A DNA stretch of 32,000 nt from Candidatus Heimdallarchaeota archaeon (GCA_030149205.1 JASBSB010000003.1:30001-62000); one strand, 5' to 3'. Counted from the first letter of the stretch, positions 2,378-28,694 are shown. A program made the numbers and translations. The notes: a model not told the origin generated them from the sequence alone.

Positions 2378-3808
2378 TTAATACGACAAGAAGACTTTTG
2401 ACTCATTTACAAATAATGACAGCATCTCATGTATCTCAGTAGTCATATTTAACACCCCATTTGTCAACGGATTTGCATCATTTTCTGAGAGAAGAAAGTT
2501 TATTTGAGCTGCAGTTGCCCTCAGTAACCCTTTCATCTGGGTAGCCTTGACTAGGGCATTCACTTCCAACGGGTAAATGGCTACAGATAACATAAATTCG
2601 TCATTGCCTGATCTAGTTCTTGAATTTTCAAGAGTGAATATTATATTAATAGATGCAAATTCATTATCTGCATGAATAAATGGGTCAAATTCGTTCACTC
2701 CAGTTGTATCCATTAAGTTCGGAATGATTTTAAGTTTCTCCAGCAATAAGTCATTCGAGGTAGGAGGTGCAGAAAAAACGAGCTTGGGTCCAATAATTTC
2801 ATCAAAGTAAGAGAGGATTACAAATACTTTCAAATCTTCATTCCCACCCATAAATATTTTAGGAGTTCTAGGGTCAAAATTTATCACTACTCGGTAAAGG
2901 TCTAACTTCTTGTGGTTTGTAGAATACATCTTTGCACTAGGCCAACTCACTTCGGAATTTTTCAAATAATTTGGCCCTGTTAGTGAAGGCCGTGTAGTAC
3001 TTGTCTTACTTAATAGCGAGGTAAGTTCTAATTGTTCCCAACTCGGAAAAACAAAATCTACTTGTTGAGAAACATCCCCAAAATTTCGAACAAAAGATTG
3101 AAAACTCTCTTTTAGTAATGATTTAAGAAGGTCAATTGGAATTTTTCTCTTAATTGAGTTTAGCGTGCGTACAAAGAGGGAATCCAGTTGTCTAAATACA
3201 ATTTTCTGCTTTTGCAGAGAATTTATTCCCTCATGAACTTTTATTTGTAAAACTTGATCACTTACTAAAAATCTATCAGGGTACTTTTTCTGTAAGTTGT
3301 TAAATTGACGAGTGACAATTTTTTCAATTTCTATTCTGTAGCTTGTTGCAGCATAGCTTATGACAATTTGATAAAAAACCGAATAAAGGAAAGGAACAAT
3401 TAATAACTTTGATTCACTGTACTTCAATTGTGAAGCTAAAAATCTTGATAAAACAAACCCCAGATCATTTCTGGTAAAGGGTTTATACAAGACATCCTTT
3501 GCCCCATTTCTGAGAAGATAATCCACCTCTATTTTGTTTTGTAGATCTGATAAAACCACCACATAAACATCATTGTTTATAGATAACAGACCCTTGAGAA
3601 CATCTAGTGATTTCATATCTGGTAAAGTGGTATCTAGAAAAATTATTTTTGGATGTAGATTTCCGGATGCTCTGAATGAATCCTTTCCCTCAGCATTCGT
3701 ACCGATGACATTAAAACCGAGGAAACTCAATTCGTCCAGTAACAATTGACGAATATAGATCGAATCATCAATTATTAAGACTGTCTTCAGAATATCCATT
3801 AATTCCAC
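2378..3808 (-). CDS. Response-regulator receiver domain + helical middle region + C-terminal uDENN/longin-like (FLCN/NPRL2-type) domain
   Basis: Receiver motifs are intact: LIIDD, FLDTTLP (phospho-Asp), VVLS, YKPF. The C-terminus has VILSYFDEIIGPKLVF and FTLENSRTRSGNDEFMLSV. The start is GTG 3808 or ATG 3799. Confidence 0.8.
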   Translation of the reverse strand: MELMDILKTVLIIDDSIYIRQLLLDELSFLGFNVIGTNAEGKDSFRASGNLHPKIIFLDTTLPDMKSLDVLKGLLSINNDVYVVVLSDLQNKIEVDYLLRNGAKDVLYKPFTRNDLGFVLSRFLASQLKYSESKLLIVPFLYSVFYQIVISYAATSYRIEIEKIVTRQFNNLQKKYPDRFLVSDQVLQIKVHEGINSLQKQKIVFRQLDSLFVRTLNSIKRKIPIDLLKSLLKESFQSFVRNFGDVSQQVDFVFPSWEQLELTSLLSKTSTTRPSLTGPNYLKNSEVSWPSAKMYSTNHKKLDLYRVVINFDPRTPKIFMGGNEDLKVFVILSYFDEIIGPKLVFSAPPTSNDLLLEKLKIIPNLMDTTGVNEFDPFIHADNEFASINIIFTLENSRTRSGNDEFMLSVAIYPLEVNALVKATQMKGLLRATAAQINFLLSENDANPLTNGVLNMTTEIHEMLSLFVNESKVFLSY

Positions 3809-5212: not shown

Positions 5213-6343
5213 TTAGACAACCCAATCTTTAATTTGGTTTTGAGAAAGGTTAGCTAATTCAGATAGCTTTTGTGCATGATCTGTAATTTCTTGTAAGGAT
5301 GCCGCTTGTTCTTCTGCAGCGGCTGCTGCTTCTTGAGATGAGGCAGCTGTATTCTCTGCGACCCCAGCAATACTGTTGACTGCATTTACTATGTTTTGTA
5401 CTGCACCCCTGATGTTTGAATTAATATTATTGGTTATCTCAGATATAGAAACAGCTGCACCTTTAGATTCTTTTGAAAGTTTTCTAACCTGTTCAGCGAC
5501 AACTTGAAATCCTTGTCCAGCAGCACCTGCACGAGCAGCCTCAATTGCTGCATTTAAAGCAATTAAATTCGTTTGCTCGGCTATGTCTAGGGTTATGTTT
5601 GAGGTTGTAGAAATCTGTCTGATAGAGTCCTCTACAATGAAAACCATCTCAGATAAGATCTTTGAAATTTCATCGATCTGACGAACTTGTTCAGCAGCAC
5701 CTTCTGCTATTGTCTGGATTGTTCCAGTTACCTCCTCTGTGGTTGCTGCAACCTCTTCACTTCCTGATGCAAGTTCTTCTGCTGAATCAGCAACCTGCAT
5801 TGCAGATGATTTTATTGCCGCAATTACCGTTCTTACAGTATTTGCAAGCATTCTGTTAGCTTCAACCAACCTTCTCGCTTCCCCGCTACCCCTCGTCCTT
5901 CCTAATATTTCTACGGAAAGGTTCCTCTCAGCGAACTGTGTAGACTGTTCCGCAACTGCTTTTAAAGGTTTCACGACTCTTTGTTCTAATGTTATCGCTA
6001 AATAAAATGATACAATGAATATTACAGCGGTTATTAAAAATGCCAAATTAGTATTATTGATGGTATAATTTGTGGGTATTGATGTCGTCTGAGCACCCAA
6101 GGTTGTTAGCAGGTAGAAGAAAACTCCGAAGGCAATATATCCCCCAATCATTGCTACAGTGAATGCACGTCTTGAAATGTTAGATGTAAACCTCAAGCGA
6201 TCTATAAAGGGATTTATTAAAGGGAGCTTGAAATTGAAAACTGGTAAGATAATTAAAAACAAGACTAATAACACAGCTTCATAAATTATAATTTGGATCA
6301 GAAGATTCGTTACCGAAGTTACATCGAAGTAAATATAACCCAT
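5213..6343 (-). CDS. Methyl-accepting chemotaxis protein with about 3 TM helices, HAMP and a short signalling domain
   Basis: [36 protein letters not shown] hairpin tip; HAMP-like [20 protein letters not shown]; methylation-consensus segments [10 protein letters not shown] and [10 protein letters not shown]. Confidence 0.95.
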
Positions 6344-6437: not shown

Positions 6438-7469
6438 TTACGCATATGTAGAATTCATCAGAGTTTGTCTTATGGCTTCTTTCAAGAGAGGGATGTTCTC
6501 CCCTGTCTTAGAACTAACTTTTAAAAAGGCAAACTCTGAATCTGAGAATTTTAGTTGACTCTCTAAACCTGAGATGAGTCTTTGAATTGATGCTTCGGAA
6601 ACCTTCTGTTTTAAATCAGACTTAGTCCCCACGATAATGAAATCTATTCCCATCCCTTTATTTTTTAATAGCTCTTTTAGCCAATACTCTATTCTAAGAA
6701 AGGTTGAATTTTCTGACAGATCGAATACAATGACACCTAGAGAGGATTGAGAAAGAAAACTGGTTCGTAAGGGTATGTAGAAATCCTTACTACTAATATC
6801 AACTAATTGCCCAAAAATGTGGAAGTTATATCCCTCATATTCAATATCTTCAATATTTGCTCCAACTGTTGTTATGTAATCTTCTACAAAGTTTTTTTCG
6901 AGCAAAGCTCTCTTTAGGTTAGTTCTCCCAACTCCTGGCTCTCCTAAGAAAACAACCTTGGCTGGGTTATCCTTAGACCCTATTATTAGCTTCTTGCTTT
7001 TTGTGTCTTTCTTCTGAATTGGGAATTGTATAATTTCTTCTTTCTCTTCTTCTACTTTAGATTCAGAGTTTACCTCAACTCCAAATGTTGAATAACCCTC
7101 AGGAACAAACTTTTGTGGTGTTGGGATATTAAAAATTGTTGACTCTTCGGCTGCGGGATTTTTATGCATAAGACGAGCAGTGTCAGTTAATTTGTTAAAT
7201 TCCTGTTTCTTATTAAAGAAATAGTCGTGGATTAGTTCAGGACTAATAACAAAATTTGGTTCTTCAGGATTATCTTCACCTGTAGACTGAGACTGACTTT
7301 TTATCATCTTCTCAACTCTTTTCACTTCACTTTCATAATAAATTAATTCTTGCTTGTATTTTGCCTCTGAGATTACACCTGAGTTAACCTTGTTAAACCT
7401 TCCGCTAATCCATTCGAAAAGCTCTGCAAGGTAATCATCCCAGTCGGAAGAATCAATTTCTTTATCCAC
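6438..7469 (-). CDS. Rab-like small GTPase domain with an acidic N-terminal extension of about 170 aa; G1 and G3 are degenerate
   Basis: G1 GEPGVGRT, G2 YITTVGA, G3 LVDISSK, VIVFDLS...TFLRIEYWLKEL, G4 VGTKSD, G5 VSSKTGENI. GTG start. No C-terminal Cys. Confidence 0.88.
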   Translation of the reverse strand: MDKEIDSSDWDDYLAELFEWISGRFNKVNSGVISEAKYKQELIYYESEVKRVEKMIKSQSQSTGEDNPEEPNFVISPELIHDYFFNKKQEFNKLTDTARLMHKNPAAEESTIFNIPTPQKFVPEGYSTFGVEVNSESKVEEEKEEIIQFPIQKKDTKSKKLIIGSKDNPAKVVFLGEPGVGRTNLKRALLEKNFVEDYITTVGANIEDIEYEGYNFHIFGQLVDISSKDFYIPLRTSFLSQSSLGVIVFDLSENSTFLRIEYWLKELLKNKGMGIDFIIVGTKSDLKQKVSEASIQRLISGLESQLKFSDSEFAFLKVSSKTGENIPLLKEAIRQTLMNSTYA

Positions 7470-7489
7470 AGATTTTTATTGTTGAAGTA

Positions 7490-7505
7490 ATAAATAAGCT
7501 TTTTC
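7490..7505 (-). promoter_or_regulatory. BRE-TATA-like element (GAAAAAGCTTATTTAT) upstream of the GTPase gene
   Basis: A purine-rich run followed by TTATTTAT, 21-28 nt upstream of GTG 7469. Confidence 0.5.
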
Positions 7506-7535
7506 AACATATTTAACTATATTTTCTGTGTTCGT

Positions 7536-8291
7536 TCATTTCTCAGTCAAATATTCATGTTCGATTTTGGTTTTAATCTTGTAGAAAAGCATCAACATCT
7601 GGTTTTTGTTCTCAGTCGCGTAAATTATTTTCCCTGCAAGTATGTAATTCGTATCATAAATTCTTGATAAAACCAGTGATTCTTTAAATGAATGGTTTCC
7701 CTGAAAAAATACGTTTGATTCTCCAACCCAATCTTTTTCGAATGGTAGTTGAGAGCACAAGTTCATCAACAGTTCCATAGAATCCTCTTCTCCAAAAAAC
7801 TGATGTATCAAACCCCGCTCTAGGTGAATTAAAGATAAATTATTAAATTCGATCTCCTCAAAATTATCTAAGACGTGGACACTGGAAAGAACAGAGTTTG
7901 TGATTTGTAAAAATTCAGTGGAATTTGATAATATTAACTTAATTTGGTCTATAATTGAAGGAGAGGGGACATAACTAAATATTACTGTATCATCTAACCT
8001 ATCACCAATAAATAAAATTACCTTTTCCATAGTTTTTTTCGTATGGGCTATATTATCAAATTTATCTGTAAATGCAACGTAGGATAATCCTTTATGTCCA
8101 ATCACTAAGATACGTAATGCTCCAATTTCTGCCTTCTCAAACTCATAATCTCTATCTAAATTGTCGGTAAACATTATAAGAGCCCCAACCAGTCCGGTCA
8201 TAAGTGAGGAATCAACTGCTATAGAATCATCATCAAAAAGCTCAAAACCGATACCTGAGCCAGAGTCTAGCACCAAAAGCTTTTTTATCAA
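7536..8291 (-). CDS. Longin-domain protein, probably two tandem longin-like domains
   Basis: Domain 1 reads b1 KKLLVLD, b2 GIGFELF, a1 DSSLMTGLVGALIMF (D-x-x-L-x-x-G-x-x-x-A-L-x-x-F, as in small longins), three strands, then a2. The C-terminal half repeats a b-b-a-b-b-b-a pattern. TTG start. Confidence 0.7.
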   Translation of the reverse strand: MIKKLLVLDSGSGIGFELFDDDSIAVDSSLMTGLVGALIMFTDNLDRDYEFEKAEIGALRILVIGHKGLSYVAFTDKFDNIAHTKKTMEKVILFIGDRLDDTVIFSYVPSPSIIDQIKLILSNSTEFLQITNSVLSSVHVLDNFEEIEFNNLSLIHLERGLIHQFFGEEDSMELLMNLCSQLPFEKDWVGESNVFFQGNHSFKESLVLSRIYDTNYILAGKIIYATENKNQMLMLFYKIKTKIEHEYLTEK

Positions 8292-8414: not shown

Positions 8415-8527
8415 AACTGAACACTTATGAATCCTACAATTTGTGAGCAAGTATTTCAAAAAAGCACAAATAGGTTCAACGCTAAATTGTAAAACTTTAT
8501 TTATTATGTTTCAATCAAAAATTAATA

Positions 8528-9400
8528 ATGTTTGGGAATGAGAATGCTGATTCAAAATATGCATGGAAGGCAAAATATGAACAGGCCTCACAGCATGCGA
8601 ATGGTTTGCAACAGAGAATTCACGAGTTACAGGGGGTAATTAATGAGTATGAGGAAGCCATCAATAAATTGATTGAATCAAATAAAGGTCTAGAACAAGA
8701 TAATGGATATCTTCGTAAAATGATAGAAGAGAAAGATTCAGAGCTCAATGCATCACGAGAACCAGTATCCAAGCAAAATAAAACTACCTTGCAAGCTTCC
8801 CAAATTGTGTCACCTATTAGTTCACAAAGTAACTCCAACTCGTATCCAATAATACAGAGTCTCTTGATCCCTATGATGTTGAGAGAATTTCATGAAGATG
8901 ATTCAGATAATTTTGAAATATTCCAACAATTTGTGGAGGCTGTTATTCAGGAGGGACAGACTGAGGCAAAAATTGTAGGACTACTTGTCAAACATGGGGG
9001 AAAAGGACCTATTAATAAGGTAAAAGAGCGAATTAATTCTTCAGACTTTGATTTTGCACTTGATCAACTCACAAGATCAAACATTATAAAAATTCATCAA
9101 AATGAAATCATCCTCTCTACTATTTTTGAAGGAGGGAGCTCTGAGATGGATTGGGACTCAATGGACGTTCCGGACATGTTTGAAACATTACAGAAAATTG
9201 TGGAAACAACACCTCCAACCGAATTGGCAGGAATACTGGAGGGATTCCGAGATTCTCTACAAAATAGAGACATTCCGGCAACCACTGTATTCTTTTCCAT
9301 AAGAAAAACAATTGAAAGAGTAAAAAAGGACAATATCACAGTAAATGCACTGAAAAAAGAGATTAATGAGTGGGCTGGAAAAATATTAGGTTCCTTTTAA
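8528..9400 (+). CDS. Hypothetical protein: N-terminal coiled coil, S/Q-rich linker, winged-helix-like segment, C-terminal helical domain
   Basis: Heptad pattern over residues ~10-78. EAKIVGLLVKHGGKGPINKVKERI...FALDQLTRSNIIKIHQNEII resembles a wHTH. A TTTATT box lies about 27-32 nt upstream. Confidence 0.7.
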   Translation: MFGNENADSKYAWKAKYEQASQHANGLQQRIHELQGVINEYEEAINKLIESNKGLEQDNGYLRKMIEEKDSELNASREPVSKQNKTTLQASQIVSPISSQSNSNSYPIIQSLLIPMMLREFHEDDSDNFEIFQQFVEAVIQEGQTEAKIVGLLVKHGGKGPINKVKERINSSDFDFALDQLTRSNIIKIHQNEIILSTIFEGGSSEMDWDSMDVPDMFETLQKIVETTPPTELAGILEGFRDSLQNRDIPATTVFFSIRKTIERVKKDNITVNALKKEINEWAGKILGSF

Positions 9401-10168
9401 TTAAACCATGGTAATACCATATTTTATAAGGAGAGGTTCTGCTTCATCGTAATTATCAAGTTTGACAATTTTCATGCTATTTTTGTAAAATTCTAAGTTG
9501 AGGTTGTTAACCGCATTGTTCACACGTCTTACTTTGAAAGGTGAGCTTGTATGTTTTGCAAACAGATAGATAGTCTTTTTCCCCTCGTCAATTAACACCA
9601 CATCGTGTTCTTTCTTAACGAAGTTATTATCACGATATTCAATCATTTTTTCAGAATTTTCGTCAAACCAGAATGCCCTCGTTTGTGGTGACGTGACAAG
9701 TTCAATTATATGATTCAATAATTCCTTACCAAAATTTTCATCAATTGACTCCTTCCTTACTTTTTGAGAATTTTTTGAGAAAAACATCTGAAGATAGGGT
9801 TCTATTAAACCAGTTGCCCTTCTAACATCACTTATCCTTTCTTTAGGAAAAATCAGTACAACTCCTAAATGTGTACCATGATCAACCAACCTAGAGTCTG
9901 AAGAACTATTATAGTCAACGAGTGTTAGAAAAAATAAAGCTTGAACATCTTTTCTTCCTTTCACTGGAACAGGTCCTATAATTTCACTCTGTTCTTTCTC
10001 TCTTCCCTCCATAAGTCCAGCCAATGATAATAAGTGGGCTGCTGTTATGAAAGCAAGGTCTTCAGAAAGTGTTGAGACATTAGAGATAATTTCTGGCCCA
10101 GCTTCAGTCACTAATGTAACGAAGATTCCTTGAATTAAACTTTTAGGATCTTTTATTTTGTATGACAT
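9401..10168 (-). CDS. uDENN/longin-like domain fused to a C-terminal gelsolin-like domain
   Basis: N-terminal GIFVTLVTEAGPEII, IIGPVPV and ALFFLTLVD...DSRLVDHG; C-terminal HDVVLIDEGKKTIYLF...SS followed by a long helix, matching the gelsolin repeat. Confidence 0.68.
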   Translation of the reverse strand: MSYKIKDPKSLIQGIFVTLVTEAGPEIISNVSTLSEDLAFITAAHLLSLAGLMEGREKEQSEIIGPVPVKGRKDVQALFFLTLVDYNSSSDSRLVDHGTHLGVVLIFPKERISDVRRATGLIEPYLQMFFSKNSQKVRKESIDENFGKELLNHIIELVTSPQTRAFWFDENSEKMIEYRDNNFVKKEHDVVLIDEGKKTIYLFAKHTSSPFKVRRVNNAVNNLNLEFYKNSMKIVKLDNYDEAEPLLIKYGITMV

Positions 10169-10255: not shown

Positions 10256-12073
10256 TCAATATGATTTTAAATTATCTAAACTCGTGTTTACTATCATCAG
10301 AGGTTTTTTCATCTCAAAGATTAACGGGTTCAAAACCCATGTAAATGGATCGAATGCGACCACCCTATCTGCTGTGCTTAGGGGAAACTCGCCATTTTCA
10401 TTAAATCCCAGAAGCAAACCTGAATAGAGGGTTAATTTTTGATACAAAATAGTATTATCTTCAATTTCGTCTCCCTGAAGTCCATCAATAAAAGTAAGAT
10501 ATAGATTATTCCAAGGATTTTTCCCAGTCAATAATTGCTCGGAAAGGGCTAGTAAAATTTTGATTTGGTACCAATGATGTCTTTGAAATGTGAATTGATC
10601 TGCAATTGAATTAATCAACTTGGTGCCAAGGTTGATCGACTCTCTGTTATCTACCAGTACTCCGTTTGTCAGTAATATTTCAGAAAACAACAATGTTTCT
10701 TTAGGAAGGACAGCTAAGTTTTCACCCTTAAACAAAAATCCGAATCTTTTTAAAAATTCTTGAATATTAGGTTTCTGTCTGATATATAGGTCAGTCACAG
10801 CAACAACAATTAAACAGGTATTAAGTATATCACGGAATTGTAAAAACCTGGAGCTTTCTGTGATAGATTTCAAATCATTTAATGTTGTTAAGACATTAGT
10901 GAGCTGTTCTGTTAAAATTTCAAAATATGTTTGAAATAAATTTTTAATTCCTGGTTGGTTTATTACTATGACCTGAGGAAAAGTTGTGACATTGGGGTAT
11001 CTACCAGATGTGAATTTGTTATAAAGTTGCAATACGTCTTGTGTGTGCCTGCCAATATCAGATTTAATCCTCCAGATCTCGACTTCATCAATTAATCGTT
11101 TCATCTCAAGGTCTGAATTTGGGTTAAAGTTCTTGTTAATTTTACCTTCGTCATATAAACGTTTTAATTCATCTATTATTGATTCTACCTTATTACATTT
11201 ACTATCAATAAGGTCAGCGACAGTGTACACAATCATCTCAATTGAAGTTAATTGAATATTATTATTTCCAGTAAAGTTTTCCGGAAGGATTAACCCGCTA
11301 ATAACGTCAGCTTTTAGTCCTATATTAACCAGAAACTGATTTTGATAAAGGATAGATTGAAGGATATCCTTTATTGAATCAAAGATTATTTGTGAGTTTA
11401 AGAGTTGATCATAAGCGATAAACGTTAATATTGAAAAATATGTCTCTACAAATTGGTTTAGGAGTCCAAAATTTTCAATAGATTCCTCTAACCATACGCC
11501 TAAAGATGCAACCGGAATATTGGGTAATCCAACTGCAGGAGACGCAAATAAGCTAGCTCTTGCAAGGAAGTAATTATAAAACAAACTAAACTCTTGAAAA
11601 GACTTAATTGAATTCTTTGTAATCTCAATCGTTGGGATGAAATCAACAGAACTAGTCTCCAAATTGGTAAGAACTTGAGCTAGGATATTGGTTAGCCCAA
11701 TAATTTCTGTGTCTATTGTTAAAGCAGAGGTTGTGCTAAGACTTGCCAACACATAATTCATCAAGGTTTCAATTTTAAGATCAATTTGTTTATCCATCCC
11801 TGAAAGTTCATTAAATAATGAAACTAAACCCTGTTGTAAATCAAGTAAGGCATCACGTTTAGTTTGAATGGGAATCTTATCAAAAGACCCTATAGTGGAA
11901 ATAAGTTCGTGTAAATTACTCAGCTTATTTTTGATAACAATAATTTTCCCTTGTGTCTCCGTTTGTCTTTGGATATAATTTAGAAGTTCTGATAGAACTT
12001 CAGATGCCCCATTTGTCAGCTCACTAAATGGACCTACAGGAATTGTATTCATATCTAATAAAATAAGAGACAT
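10256..12073 (-). CDS. Hypothetical 605-aa protein, predominantly alpha-helical, L/I/N-rich
   Basis: Long ORF with amphipathic helical periodicity and no recognisable catalytic motif. A TTTATATA box lies at 12102-12109. Confidence 0.75.
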   Translation of the reverse strand: MSLILLDMNTIPVGPFSELTNGASEVLSELLNYIQRQTETQGKIIVIKNKLSNLHELISTIGSFDKIPIQTKRDALLDLQQGLVSLFNELSGMDKQIDLKIETLMNYVLASLSTTSALTIDTEIIGLTNILAQVLTNLETSSVDFIPTIEITKNSIKSFQEFSLFYNYFLARASLFASPAVGLPNIPVASLGVWLEESIENFGLLNQFVETYFSILTFIAYDQLLNSQIIFDSIKDILQSILYQNQFLVNIGLKADVISGLILPENFTGNNNIQLTSIEMIVYTVADLIDSKCNKVESIIDELKRLYDEGKINKNFNPNSDLEMKRLIDEVEIWRIKSDIGRHTQDVLQLYNKFTSGRYPNVTTFPQVIVINQPGIKNLFQTYFEILTEQLTNVLTTLNDLKSITESSRFLQFRDILNTCLIVVAVTDLYIRQKPNIQEFLKRFGFLFKGENLAVLPKETLLFSEILLTNGVLVDNRESINLGTKLINSIADQFTFQRHHWYQIKILLALSEQLLTGKNPWNNLYLTFIDGLQGDEIEDNTILYQKLTLYSGLLLGFNENGEFPLSTADRVVAFDPFTWVLNPLIFEMKKPLMIVNTSLDNLKSY

Positions 12074-26666: not shown

Positions 26667-28694
26667 CTATTTTTCTATATTAAATTCTGAGAGGATAGTG
26701 TTCAATTCACTTGCGACTGTAGCAATTTCTGCAGCTTGGTAACTTATTTCATGTAACATTGAAACCTGTTCTGTTGTGGCTGCATTAGCTTCCTGTGTGT
26801 TTGATGCTGTGGTTTCTGAAATATCTCTAATATCGCTAACCTCATGTATCACATTGTCAATTGTTCGACTAATCTTAAATGAGATCTCATCAATTAACCC
26901 AGAAATTTGATTTGCATAGTTCTTCGTATCGTCAGAGAATTCCCTAACATTTTCCGCAACAATACTAAACCCTCTACCAAAATCACCAGCTTTTGCGGCT
27001 TCAATCGATGCGTTTAAACCTAGGATGTTTGTCCTCTTTGCCACTTTCTGGACAAAGATAGAGGTGTCTGCTATCCTTGAGGTAGCATCTGTGACTTCTT
27101 TAAGGTGTCCCTTTAACTTATCTGATACCTCAGCGATTAATCTGTTTTGTTCACTTGCACCATATGCGATGCTAGAGATTGTATCAGATACCTGTGAGAT
27201 TGATGCAGAGGCTTCTTCAGAACTTGAAGCCATGGTTTCAGAGATTGATGAAAGGGTTTCACTAGACTCTGCAAGTTTTGCTATGAGAAATTGCAGAGAT
27301 TCCACGACCGAATTAAACCCGATTTGGATCCTCCCAATTTCTCCAGCTGATATATGCTTAAATTTCTTTATGCTAAGGTCTCTTTCAATGATCTTAGAGA
27401 AACCTTTGTCAAGTTGGATTGTCAATCTACGTAAATTAATCAAGAGAGGTACAACGAATAAAAATATCAACAATCCAATAAGTGAAACAAGAATAAGCCT
27501 AACCAAAAATATCTGATTCAATCTTTGTTGAATATAACCGGTTAATAGAATTCTAAAGTTTTGACTTTGAGCAGAAACAATAGCAATCAAAGTCGAAAAA
27601 TCACTAATTATCTGTGAAATCTTAGCTGGGACAACCAATGTTGATGTATCTATTAAAGATTGGATACTTGTAGAGACAATATCTAAGAACTGTAAAGACT
27701 TCTTTGTTGTTGGATAAATAGCATTTGTTGAGTTGAAGCTGATATTATATAAATCCTTGAATAGCTTTGATTCATTACTCTGTAGTTTAATGTATCCTAC
27801 GGAATTCGGGTTTAAGACCTGTTGAAGTGAGGAGTTAGCTGAAAGTTGGAAAAGATCAATTTTTTGACGGAACCTTGATGCCTCTCTTTGTATAACTGAA
27901 ATTTTCTCTGTGAACATTACAGCGTTAAACTGCACTAAGAAAGAATAAAGTTCATTTAAGTTTGTCTTTACATTATCTGCTACTTTGAGGACTGAATAAG
28001 CATACTTTAGAAGAGTACTGTTATTTGTTGCATTCGCTGTCTGGAAAAGTGTATGTAAACTCGTGGTAATTTCACTTAATTTTATTGTAACATTGGCAAA
28101 GGTTCCAGTTTGAGAAAGACTACTTCCTTGTCTATAGAACCCAGTTAGATTCGCAACCGTGTCAGCAAAATTGTTTAAGTTATTATAATAATTTATTTGG
28201 TCAGTAGATAGTGTTGAGAAAATGGGTGGTAATCCGAACTTCATCTCATTTTTCACATTGTCGAACAAGATGTTGATGGCGCTTGAATTTAACAAGTTAA
28301 TACTGGTTTTATATTGATTTAGATTGTATCCTTCGTTATCTCTCTGAGTAATTTTTTGACTAAGTAAACCCAGTAGGGAATTAATTTTGGTTAGATTTTT
28401 ATTGTAATCAAGTGTTTGAGGGCTTTTCTCTCTCCAACTAACAAGCAACCCATCAACTGACTGAGATTGGAACAGGTTTACCATCTCCTGCTGAACTTGA
28501 TACATTAAATTAGTTATATTTTGATCTCTTAACTGGTACTGAGACCCCCTGTTTATATCTGATGCTAACTGAAGGTTTTGAGTTCTGTTGTATGCCTCAG
28601 GTATAACTAGAGCCATTATGAGTAACAAAATCACTAAAACCACACGTGTGGTTATTGATAACGTTCTTCTGGAATGAAGATTTTCTGCTGACAA
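26667..28694 (-). CDS. Methyl-accepting chemotaxis protein with a large helical extracellular sensor and a short signalling domain
   Basis: Two TM helices flank about 360 aa rich in sequons; tip VAKRTNILGLNASIEAAKAGDFGRGFSIVAENVR; methylation-consensus segments ASSSEEASAS and ASNTQEANAA. TTG start with a GAGGT SD. Confidence 0.93.
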   Translation of the reverse strand: MSAENLHSRRTLSITTRVVLVILLLIMALVIPEAYNRTQNLQLASDINRGSQYQLRDQNITNLMYQVQQEMVNLFQSQSVDGLLVSWREKSPQTLDYNKNLTKINSLLGLLSQKITQRDNEGYNLNQYKTSINLLNSSAINILFDNVKNEMKFGLPPIFSTLSTDQINYYNNLNNFADTVANLTGFYRQGSSLSQTGTFANVTIKLSEITTSLHTLFQTANATNNSTLLKYAYSVLKVADNVKTNLNELYSFLVQFNAVMFTEKISVIQREASRFRQKIDLFQLSANSSLQQVLNPNSVGYIKLQSNESKLFKDLYNISFNSTNAIYPTTKKSLQFLDIVSTSIQSLIDTSTLVVPAKISQIISDFSTLIAIVSAQSQNFRILLTGYIQQRLNQIFLVRLILVSLIGLLIFLFVVPLLINLRRLTIQLDKGFSKIIERDLSIKKFKHISAGEIGRIQIGFNSVVESLQFLIAKLAESSETLSSISETMASSSEEASASISQVSDTISSIAYGASEQNRLIAEVSDKLKGHLKEVTDATSRIADTSIFVQKVAKRTNILGLNASIEAAKAGDFGRGFSIVAENVREFSDDTKNYANQISGLIDEISFKISRTIDNVIHEVSDIRDISETTASNTQEANAATTEQVSMLHEISYQAAEIATVASELNTILSEFNIEK

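Follow-up and report, generated by a model that had tools for sequence, protein, structure and literature searches.

Nucleotide-binding, catalytically impaired pseudo-GTPases of the Ras superfamily bind GTP without hydrolysing it and act through their binding partners (PMC10211241, PMC5593906). In Rnd1/3, RGK and the N-terminal domain of p190RhoGAP, the residues that contact the base and Mg are kept and catalytic and switch-II residues are replaced (PMC10211241, PMC5593906), and the same combination is found in the product of a gene at positions 6438-7469 of a 32,000-nucleotide stretch of DNA from Candidatus Heimdallarchaeota archaeon (GCA_030149205.1 JASBSB010000003.1:30001-62000; hereafter the window). 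The window protein differs from these pseudo-GTPases in having Arg in place of the P-loop Lys, in being archaeal, and in a degeneration that appears recent and confined to one genus. Rnd, RGK and p190RhoGAP pseudo-GTPases keep the P-loop Lys, a residue that is among the most conserved in biology. The window protein belongs with the pseudo- or atypical GTPases of the Ras superfamily, an already known kind, and its host archaeal lineage is the one closest to eukaryotes.

Mutant proteins offer further comparisons. Where Ras is altered in the G60A mutant and the oncogenic Q61K/L/R forms, the window protein naturally has Ser at Gly60 and Lys at Gln61; unlike those mutations, the window substitutions are natural and combined with Arg16 and Ser59 (Ras numbering). 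RecA K72R and Rad51 K191R carry the same Lys-to-Arg substitution at the same structural position and bind nucleotide with hardly any hydrolysis. These are engineered ATPase mutants, whereas the Arg described here is natural and fixed in a GTPase clade, together with an apparently compensating Ala59-to-Gly change.

Asgard Rab-like GTPases (Thorarchaeota Rab 7EZB; PMC10933270) likewise have a Ras/Rab fold with G2, G4 and G5 motifs and no C-terminal prenylation Cys, the absence of which is usual among Asgard GTPases, and like the window gene they are encoded near longin/roadblock genes (PMC10933270). The window protein is unlike the Thorarchaeota Rab and all 21 paralogues in its own genome, which have GK[ST] and DxAGQ, lack the N-terminal hairpin and linker, and are without a fixed chemoreceptor neighbour. 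The MglA/MglB-Frz system of Myxococcus ties a prokaryotic Ras-like GTPase and a roadblock regulator to a pathway based on methyl-accepting chemotaxis proteins (MCPs; PMC4546325). MglA is not encoded beside its MCP, has a Lys P-loop and lacks the N-terminal hairpin, and the analogy with the window is drawn from gene order alone.

Full-text literature searches found no natural Arg-P-loop Ras-type clade, no archaeal pseudo-GTPases and no Asgard GTPase-chemoreceptor pair. The Arg-P-loop clade is unmentioned in the Asgard GTPase surveys of PMC10933270 and bioRxiv 10.1101/2024.02.28.582541, the latter of which noted unannotated 'rapidly evolving derivatives' and 'potentially novel GTPase subgroups'. 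The family described below is apparently small and undescribed.

The window protein and its Arg P-loop family

The window is G000:C7:30001-62000, where G000 is its genome (3.3 Mb in 12 contigs); the contig is 474 kb long and the GC content of the window is about 34%. The gene and its parts are as follows (AF2, AlphaFold2; pLDDT, predicted local distance difference test).

6438-7469, minus strand: the whole gene, an N-hairpin/Arg-P-loop Ras-superfamily GTPase of 343 aa (GTG start; TAA stop at 6438-6440)
7284-7451, minus strand: N-terminal two-helix hairpin, residues 7-62 (AF2 pLDDT >90, alignment, profile search)
6990-7283, minus strand: low-complexity, partly acidic linker, residues ~63-160 (pLDDT 31-56; length varies among family members)
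6441-6989, minus strand: Ras-fold G domain, residues ~161-343 (Pfam, Foldseek)
6921-6944, minus strand: G1/P-loop GEPGVGRT, with Arg182 for the invariant Lys (DNA read, alignments)
6867-6869, minus strand: G2 Thr201, equivalent to Ras Thr35 (family-invariant)
6786-6800, minus strand: degenerate G3, D224-I-S-S-K228 in place of DLGGQ (DNA read, alignments)
6615-6626, minus strand: G4 TKSD, with Lys283 and Asp285 kept; NKxD in orthologues (alignment)
6507-6515, minus strand: G5 SSK, with Ser319 and Lys321 kept; SAK in orthologues (alignment)

An earlier annotation made from the DNA alone, the sequence-only reading, had described a Rab-like GTPase with Arg for the P-loop Lys and with a G3 that had lost both its Gly and its catalytic Gln. 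Both changes were confirmed. The plus-strand letters tct at 6924-6926 read AGA on the minus strand and encode Arg182, which gives GEPGVGRT where GxxxxGK[ST] would be canonical. Positions 6786-6800 encode DISSK in place of DxxG and Gln; pairwise alignments with solved relatives set it under DLAGQ/DTAGL of Rabs, and the changes are Ala59/Gly59 to Ser, Gly60 to Ser and Gln61 to Lys (Ras numbering). Thr201, TKSD and SSK, which had been called retained, were all read in the DNA, and they conform to the Mg- and guanine-binding motifs (G2 Thr, G4 [NT]KxD and G5 SxK).

Residues 171-328 match the Pfam Ras family (PF00071) with 79 bits (cut-off 21.6; E 3.9e-22), and the top solved relatives are Thorarchaeota Rab 7EZB, Rab25 and Rab6 (E ~2e-13). 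The term Rab-like is apt for the Ras/Rab fold but goes too far otherwise. The C-terminus, ...MNSTYA, has no Cys and hence no prenylation motif of a eukaryotic-type Rab, as had been noted, and no Rab-family motifs were recognisable by eye on the alignments, without a formal classifier. At the positions of RabF1-F5 (IGVDF, KLQIWDTAGQE, RFRSIT, YYRGA and LVYDIT) the window protein reads VGANIE, QLVDISSKD, FYIPLRTS, FLSQSS and IVFDLS.

AF2 was run on the window GTPase with the family alignment. Three regions were predicted: a hairpin at residues 7-62 (pLDDT >90), a disordered stretch at ~63-160, and a confident Ras fold at ~161-343 with pLDDT mostly 87-95. The previously described acidic N-terminal extension of ~170 aa is present and is resolved by this model into a predicted helical hairpin followed by a disordered linker. 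Foldseek matched the model to Ras/Rab structures, NRAS Q61K (PDB 9bg3) among them, with target-normalised template modelling scores of 0.80-0.91. All eight hairpin invariants (Y13, L14, L17, W20, Y38, Y44, E48 and R51) are kept in the window protein, which matches the family hairpin profile at E 5e-27. No known-domain match for the hairpin was found in Pfam, by a profile against PDB sequences, or in the ESM Atlas with residues 1-100; its predicted fold identity goes no further than 'two-helix hairpin'.

A word-indexed protein search returned the window protein alone, and it was an exhaustive HMMER search of 1.84 billion representatives that revealed the family. Full-length relatives from this search and from related genomes are 23-36% identical, fall into ~14 representative clusters, and are built alike from ~60 conserved N-terminal residues, a low-complexity linker that varies, and the G domain. 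Within the class, 83 genomes from families that we label f1-f7 were searched with the hairpin profile. Matches were obtained for 10/11 in f1 and 3/3 in f4, with none in f2 (0/31), f5 (0/22), f7 (0/12), f6 (0/2) or f3 (0/1). Judged by this search, the Arg P-loop family is restricted to two Heimdallarchaeial (Kari-like) families.

GxxxxGR[ST] is present in 15/15 f1-type orthologues and GK in 13/13 aligned canonical paralogues, while P-loop Arg was found in 0/78 scorable related GTPase domains from metagenome loci, all of which have Lys. The metagenome contig scan yielded only Lys-P-loop paralogues and no further family members, and was used as a background count. Conservation in all 15 orthologues argues that the change from Lys to Arg is neither decay nor error. 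The orthologues otherwise retain Thr35, DLGGQ, NKxD and SAK; because Arg is paired with these intact motifs, Arg alone is no mark of a dead enzyme. A six-frame scan of G000 identified 22 other GTPase-like open reading frames (ORFs), all with Lys in the P-loop and 19 with a recognisable D-x-x-G-type G3. The window gene alone in this genome has an Arg P-loop and no G3 Gly and, given these other ORFs, its motif changes are not chance.

Only three differences between the clade and its paralogues are fixed: Lys16 to Arg, Ala59 to Gly and Phe64 to Tyr (Ras numbering). All three positions surround the gamma-phosphate site. Two members without the Arg, P0008 (Thr; P-loop GTGTT) and P0010 (Cys; P-loop GVGCT), have Ala59 back and a G3 of DLAGA. 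Since loss of Arg is accompanied by return of Ala59, we suggest that Arg16 and Gly59 are structurally coupled. Non-canonical active sites recur in the hairpin family, as P0021 (GAGKT, DIGDK, TKHD and SEK) and two hairpin-GTPase paralogues of f4 also deviate; one of the latter has GERSVGRS with a ruined G3 (HDVDHT) and the other GSSGSGKT with ELDSGKQ. The window protein has GxxxxGR[ST] and keeps Tyr231, but it departs from the Gly59/Tyr64/DLGGQ signature, with Ser226 for Gly59. These comparisons place it as a derived member of the N-hairpin/Arg-P-loop family.

The sequence-only reading had taken the two substitutions as one event, and would have counted itself refuted were they private to this assembly through sequencing error or decay. 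Alignment of homologues gave them separate histories: Arg is family-wide and shared by 15 orthologues, whereas DISSK, with TKSD and SSK, is private to the lineage of this genome, so that one half of the refuting condition applies.

A natural clade in which Arg is fixed, with residue 59 apparently changed in compensation, makes it possible to test the capabilities of an Arg P-loop within the Ras fold. In addition, the family forms a graded natural series for the origin of a pseudo-GTPase, from members with otherwise intact motifs through replacement of Arg by Thr or Cys and varied loss of G3 to the recent DISSK. All of these claims are bioinformatic, and they concern a family of narrow taxonomic range.

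G000 has no N-hairpin GTPase gene other than that of the window. The hairpin also occurs on its own, in a protein of 80-100 aa with a conserved basic C-terminal motif (STSIAGLRKKL) that f1 genomes including G000 encode (G000:C4:634908-635168, minus strand; also at L038, L039, L042, L043 and L045), and small ORFs in f4 match this protein more weakly. By eye, the G000 copy is flanked by glmS-like and ribosomal-protein-L11-like ORFs, a context that is uninformative. Outside the hairpin family, P0037, a tandem GTPase of 371 aa, reads GDFQVGRT in the first of its G domains and lacks a DxxG motif throughout. Thus, an Arg P-loop arises occasionally elsewhere, again without a recognisable G3.

Divergence and constraint in the window copy

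The window G domain differs from the orthologues at 23 of the 51 columns that are conserved in at least 14/15 of them; the corresponding leave-one-out values for the orthologues are 0-5. At 2.03 substitutions per site, its terminal branch is ~4-fold as long as the median (0.47; orthologues, 0.16-0.64). The window G domain is 36-39% identical to those of the same-genus genomes G003 and G001, which are 74% identical to each other. For the neighbouring MCP the corresponding values are 52-56% and 69%, and for enolase 67-70% and 81%. As these neighbours diverged less, the acceleration of the GTPase is gene-specific.

The MCP nearest to that of the window (60% identity) is from G002, in which the contig begins within the GTPase gene. 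The surviving 97 C-terminal GTPase residues contain canonical NKID and SAK motifs, and share 57-63% identity with G003/G001 but 31% with the window protein. Since this fragment is canonical, the burst of change is limited to the lineage of the window genome. The degeneration is very recent and lies within one genus. Long branches make the placement of the window and f4 proteins in the tree unreliable, and the tree is therefore uninformative on whether Arg or Lys is ancestral for the hairpin family as a whole.

Despite ~2 substitutions per site in an AT-rich genome (34% GC), the 343-codon frame is open. Among clade-invariant positions, those that contact nucleotide or Mg, picked from knowledge of Ras structure, were kept at 10/12, compared with 18/39 of the others (Fisher p=0.044). 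The two changed contacts are Asn to Thr in G4, a variant that also occurs in two other G000 GTPases, and Ala to Ser in G5. The retained base-specificity and Mg residues are F194, T183, T201, D224, K283, D285, S319 and K321, and the losses fall precisely on Gly60, which senses the gamma-phosphate, and on Gln61, which is catalytic. The open frame, the kept hairpin invariants, the confident core fold and the kept contacts together argue that the window gene is under selection. Sequencing error was rejected on account of the many independent substitutions within an open frame. Our reading is that the window protein is selected and would bind nucleotide with impaired hydrolysis and switching, and that it is neither an assembly error nor a dead gene.

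Readings of the window protein

We consider it moderately probable that the window protein is a guanine-nucleotide-binding pseudo-GTPase that neither hydrolyses nor switches. Guanine binding with impaired hydrolysis or switching had been proposed from the sequence alone and is still the best reading for the window copy, although the Arg by itself does not imply a dead enzyme. Substitutions of Gly60 in Ras block the GTP-driven movement of switch II, and substitutions of Gln61, including Q61K, abolish hydrolysis. Walker-A Lys-to-Arg mutants of P-loop NTPases such as RecA K72R typically bind nucleotide and barely hydrolyse it. This knowledge, together with the retained base and Mg contacts, makes a nucleotide-binding, non-hydrolysing state the most likely one.

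From the sequence states, phyletic distribution, synteny, rate acceleration and predicted folds that we observed, we infer nucleotide binding, loss of hydrolysis and possible partners as follows. As the other G motifs are intact in most members, the ancestral family protein probably bound GTP and switched, perhaps slowly. The family GTPase would act with the adjacent f1 MCP, for which the hairpin would be the docking element; co-variation and gene order suggest both a functional Arg P-loop and joint action of the family protein with the neighbouring chemoreceptor through the tethered hairpin. The G domain then evolved fast in the window lineage, with replacement of switch-II Gly60 and catalytic Gln61 (DISSK) and with retention throughout of the residues for the base, Mg2+ and the alpha- and beta-phosphates, as well as the fold, the hairpin and the reading frame. 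GTP or GDP would be bound, without hydrolysis and without the canonical spring-loaded transition of switch II. The window protein would then be a constitutive or partner-regulated adaptor, with the tandem-longin protein encoded upstream and the MCP as candidate partners.

Several points weigh against this account. For a Ras fold with an Arg P-loop, nucleotide binding is a presumption, and a pocket with Ser59 and Ser60 may bind no nucleotide at all. The enrichment of kept contacts is modest (p=0.044) for positions chosen from knowledge of Ras. DISSK is found in one assembly alone, and no relative exceeds ~39% identity, so that selection on the window branch is beyond measurement by the ratio of nonsynonymous to synonymous substitution rates (dN/dS). 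Attachment of the long window branch in the tree is poorly supported (support 5); because the tree leaves it unplaced, orthology rests on synteny and the hairpin. The MCP link consists of gene order alone, the f4 GTPase and MCP are on separate contigs, and the kin genomes with MCP adjacency are not independent samples. Finally, the 94-nt gap between the GTPase and MCP genes of the window contains, by eye, a T-run and a TATA-like sequence.

It is rather unlikely that the window protein still works as a GTPase through an unconventional site, in which Arg would take the role of Lys and a partner, such as a longin/roadblock GTPase-activating protein (GAP) or the MCP, would supply the catalytic residues; the DISSK copy would in that case continue to cycle. 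RapGAP supplies catalysis in trans to Rap, which has no Gln61, and a fixed Arg that co-varies with Gly59 argues for a functional site rather than a dead one. Thr35, Gly60 and Gln61 are kept in most family members, the GDP and Mg contacts are kept in the window protein, and its gene adjoins that of a longin/roadblock-type candidate regulator. However, the window copy is without Gly60 as well as Gln61, and no candidate trans-acting catalytic residue was identified. Moreover, 45% of the clade-invariant positions are changed, including those of switch II and alpha2, which fits release from the constraint of cycling better than refinement of a mechanism. If Arg16 crowded the phosphate site together with Ser59/Ser60, the protein could instead be a nucleotide-free scaffold that uses only its fold and hairpin, like CENP-M or the p190RhoGAP middle domains. 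The very long branch of the window protein and the several independent degenerations of G motifs in the family (P0008, P0010, P0021 and HDVDHT of f4) are consistent with such a scaffold. We nevertheless find it quite improbable, as base and Mg residues were kept when nearly half of the other invariants changed, which is unexpected for an unused pocket.

A decaying gene or a functionless artefact of a single assembly is very improbable. DISSK and the 23 private changes do come from one assembly, and the longin gene is inverted relative to the sister genomes, so the locus has been rearranged. However, ~2 substitutions per site have left the 343-codon frame intact in an AT-rich genome, in which stop codons readily appear; moreover, hairpin invariants and structural core are conserved, and Arg is common to 15 orthologues. 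In addition, the substitutions are spread over many codons on a 474-kb contig, rather than being indels or a local low-quality patch.

Beyond the pseudo-GTPase reading that we prefer, a more elaborate scheme can be drawn, which we consider distinctly unlikely as a whole. In it, an Arg-P-loop switch compensated by Gly59/Tyr64 would be coupled through the hairpin to a dedicated chemoreceptor, signalling into or off the Che pathway, and the window copy would be locked and regulated by the co-oriented longin protein. If true, this receptor-coupled Arg-P-loop switch would be an Asgard receptor-coupled small G protein.

Chemoreceptor and tandem-longin neighbours

The two genes that flank the GTPase gene in the window are as follows (GEF, guanine nucleotide exchange factor).

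5213-6343, minus strand: MCP-type chemoreceptor, 376 aa (Pfam MCPsignal PF00015, E 7.6e-24; synteny)
7536-8291, minus strand: tandem longin/roadblock protein, 251 aa, candidate GEF/GAP-type regulator (AF2, Foldseek, synteny)

The MCP gene is co-directional with the GTPase gene and lies 94 nt downstream, the adjacency found in f1 members. By eye, its product has N-terminal hydrophobic, transmembrane-like segments and a canonical hairpin-tip motif. In eight other f1 genomes a co-directional MCP gene is likewise immediately downstream of the GTPase gene (43-192 nt to the first ATG); in G007 the MCP gene is adjacent and divergent. An MCP of ~370 aa is the only constant neighbour across genera. The conserved chemoreceptor pairing suggests a link between small GTPases and chemosensory systems that is undescribed within reach of our literature searches. 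Orthologues of it occur in f1 and f4, with 41-60% identity over nearly the full length, and none was seen in the 25 f2 genomes searched. Within the genus, the order 605aa-255aa-290aa-251aa longin-GTPase-MCP-enolase-receiver-domain protein is common to G001 and G003, and by this order the window gene is identified as a positional orthologue of the family members.

G000 encodes six MCPs and has CheW/CheA-type genes on contigs C1 and C10. Because these genes are present and the tip motif is kept, the window MCP is a normal array-forming receptor. An orphan MCP that signals solely via the GTPase was rejected in view of the CheW/CheA-type genes, the six MCPs and the canonical tip motif. A second, longer MCP (675-aa ORF with MCPsignal) is encoded at 26667-28694 of the window, minus strand.

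The upstream neighbour had been named a longin protein, and structure prediction and Foldseek agree with that assignment. The AF2 model of the 251-aa protein (pLDDT 88.7) has two beta-beta-alpha-beta-beta-beta-alpha modules, and Foldseek matched it to Mon1/Ccz1, Fuzzy-Inturned and BLOC-3 subunits (E 9e-9 to 1e-6, probability 1.0). Mon1-Ccz1, Fuzzy-Inturned and BLOC-3 are longin-domain Rab GEFs with tandem longin/roadblock domains, as in the 251-aa protein; the latter has two domains rather than three, has no Pfam match and adjoins this GTPase only in one genus, and its GEF role is that of a candidate. Genomes across the order each carry about two members of the tandem-longin family, which adjoins the GTPase only in genus g1. 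A longin gene as conserved partner was rejected, as outside the genus the upstream gene is, by eye, a phosphoribosyltransferase-like ORF (five genera) or another ORF (one).

In the window the tandem-longin gene is co-directional with the GTPase gene and 66 nt upstream, but in both same-genus genomes it is divergent (L017:3075-3956, minus strand; L019:3116-3889, minus strand). All other neighbours are oriented alike in these genomes, so only this gene was inverted in the lineage of the fast GTPase. A 20-nt imperfect inverted repeat, TTATTTATTA-like, at 7488-7507 and 8487-8506 flanks the longin gene, and may simply be a shared TATA-like promoter element.

Tandem-longin paralogues are adjacent in other genera (G004:C331:229-1739; G006:C177:3370-5002; G011:C378:254-1781), suggesting a Mon1-Ccz1-like heterodimer. 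The paralogues lie apart in genus g1, and the second G000 copy (C4:167109-167870) is ~5 kb from a small GTPase (C4:161281-161859). Two f2 ORFs of ~330 aa (L144:1387-2376, minus strand, in G027; L145:1405-2391, minus strand, in G030) combine an N-terminal P-loop (LGLEGSGKST in L145) with a C-terminal part that shares homology with the first of the two longin/roadblock domains in the 251-aa protein, a GTPase and roadblock architecture that recalls Rag GTPases.

The remaining genes that are syntenic with the GTPase gene within the genus encode a 476-aa protein (2378-3808, minus strand) with an N-terminal response-regulator receiver domain (Pfam E 6e-13), and proteins of 290 aa (8528-9400, plus strand), 255 aa (9401-10168, minus strand) and 605 aa (10256-12073, minus strand), these three without a confident Pfam match. 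The 290-aa gene is also present in the G009 and G005 loci.

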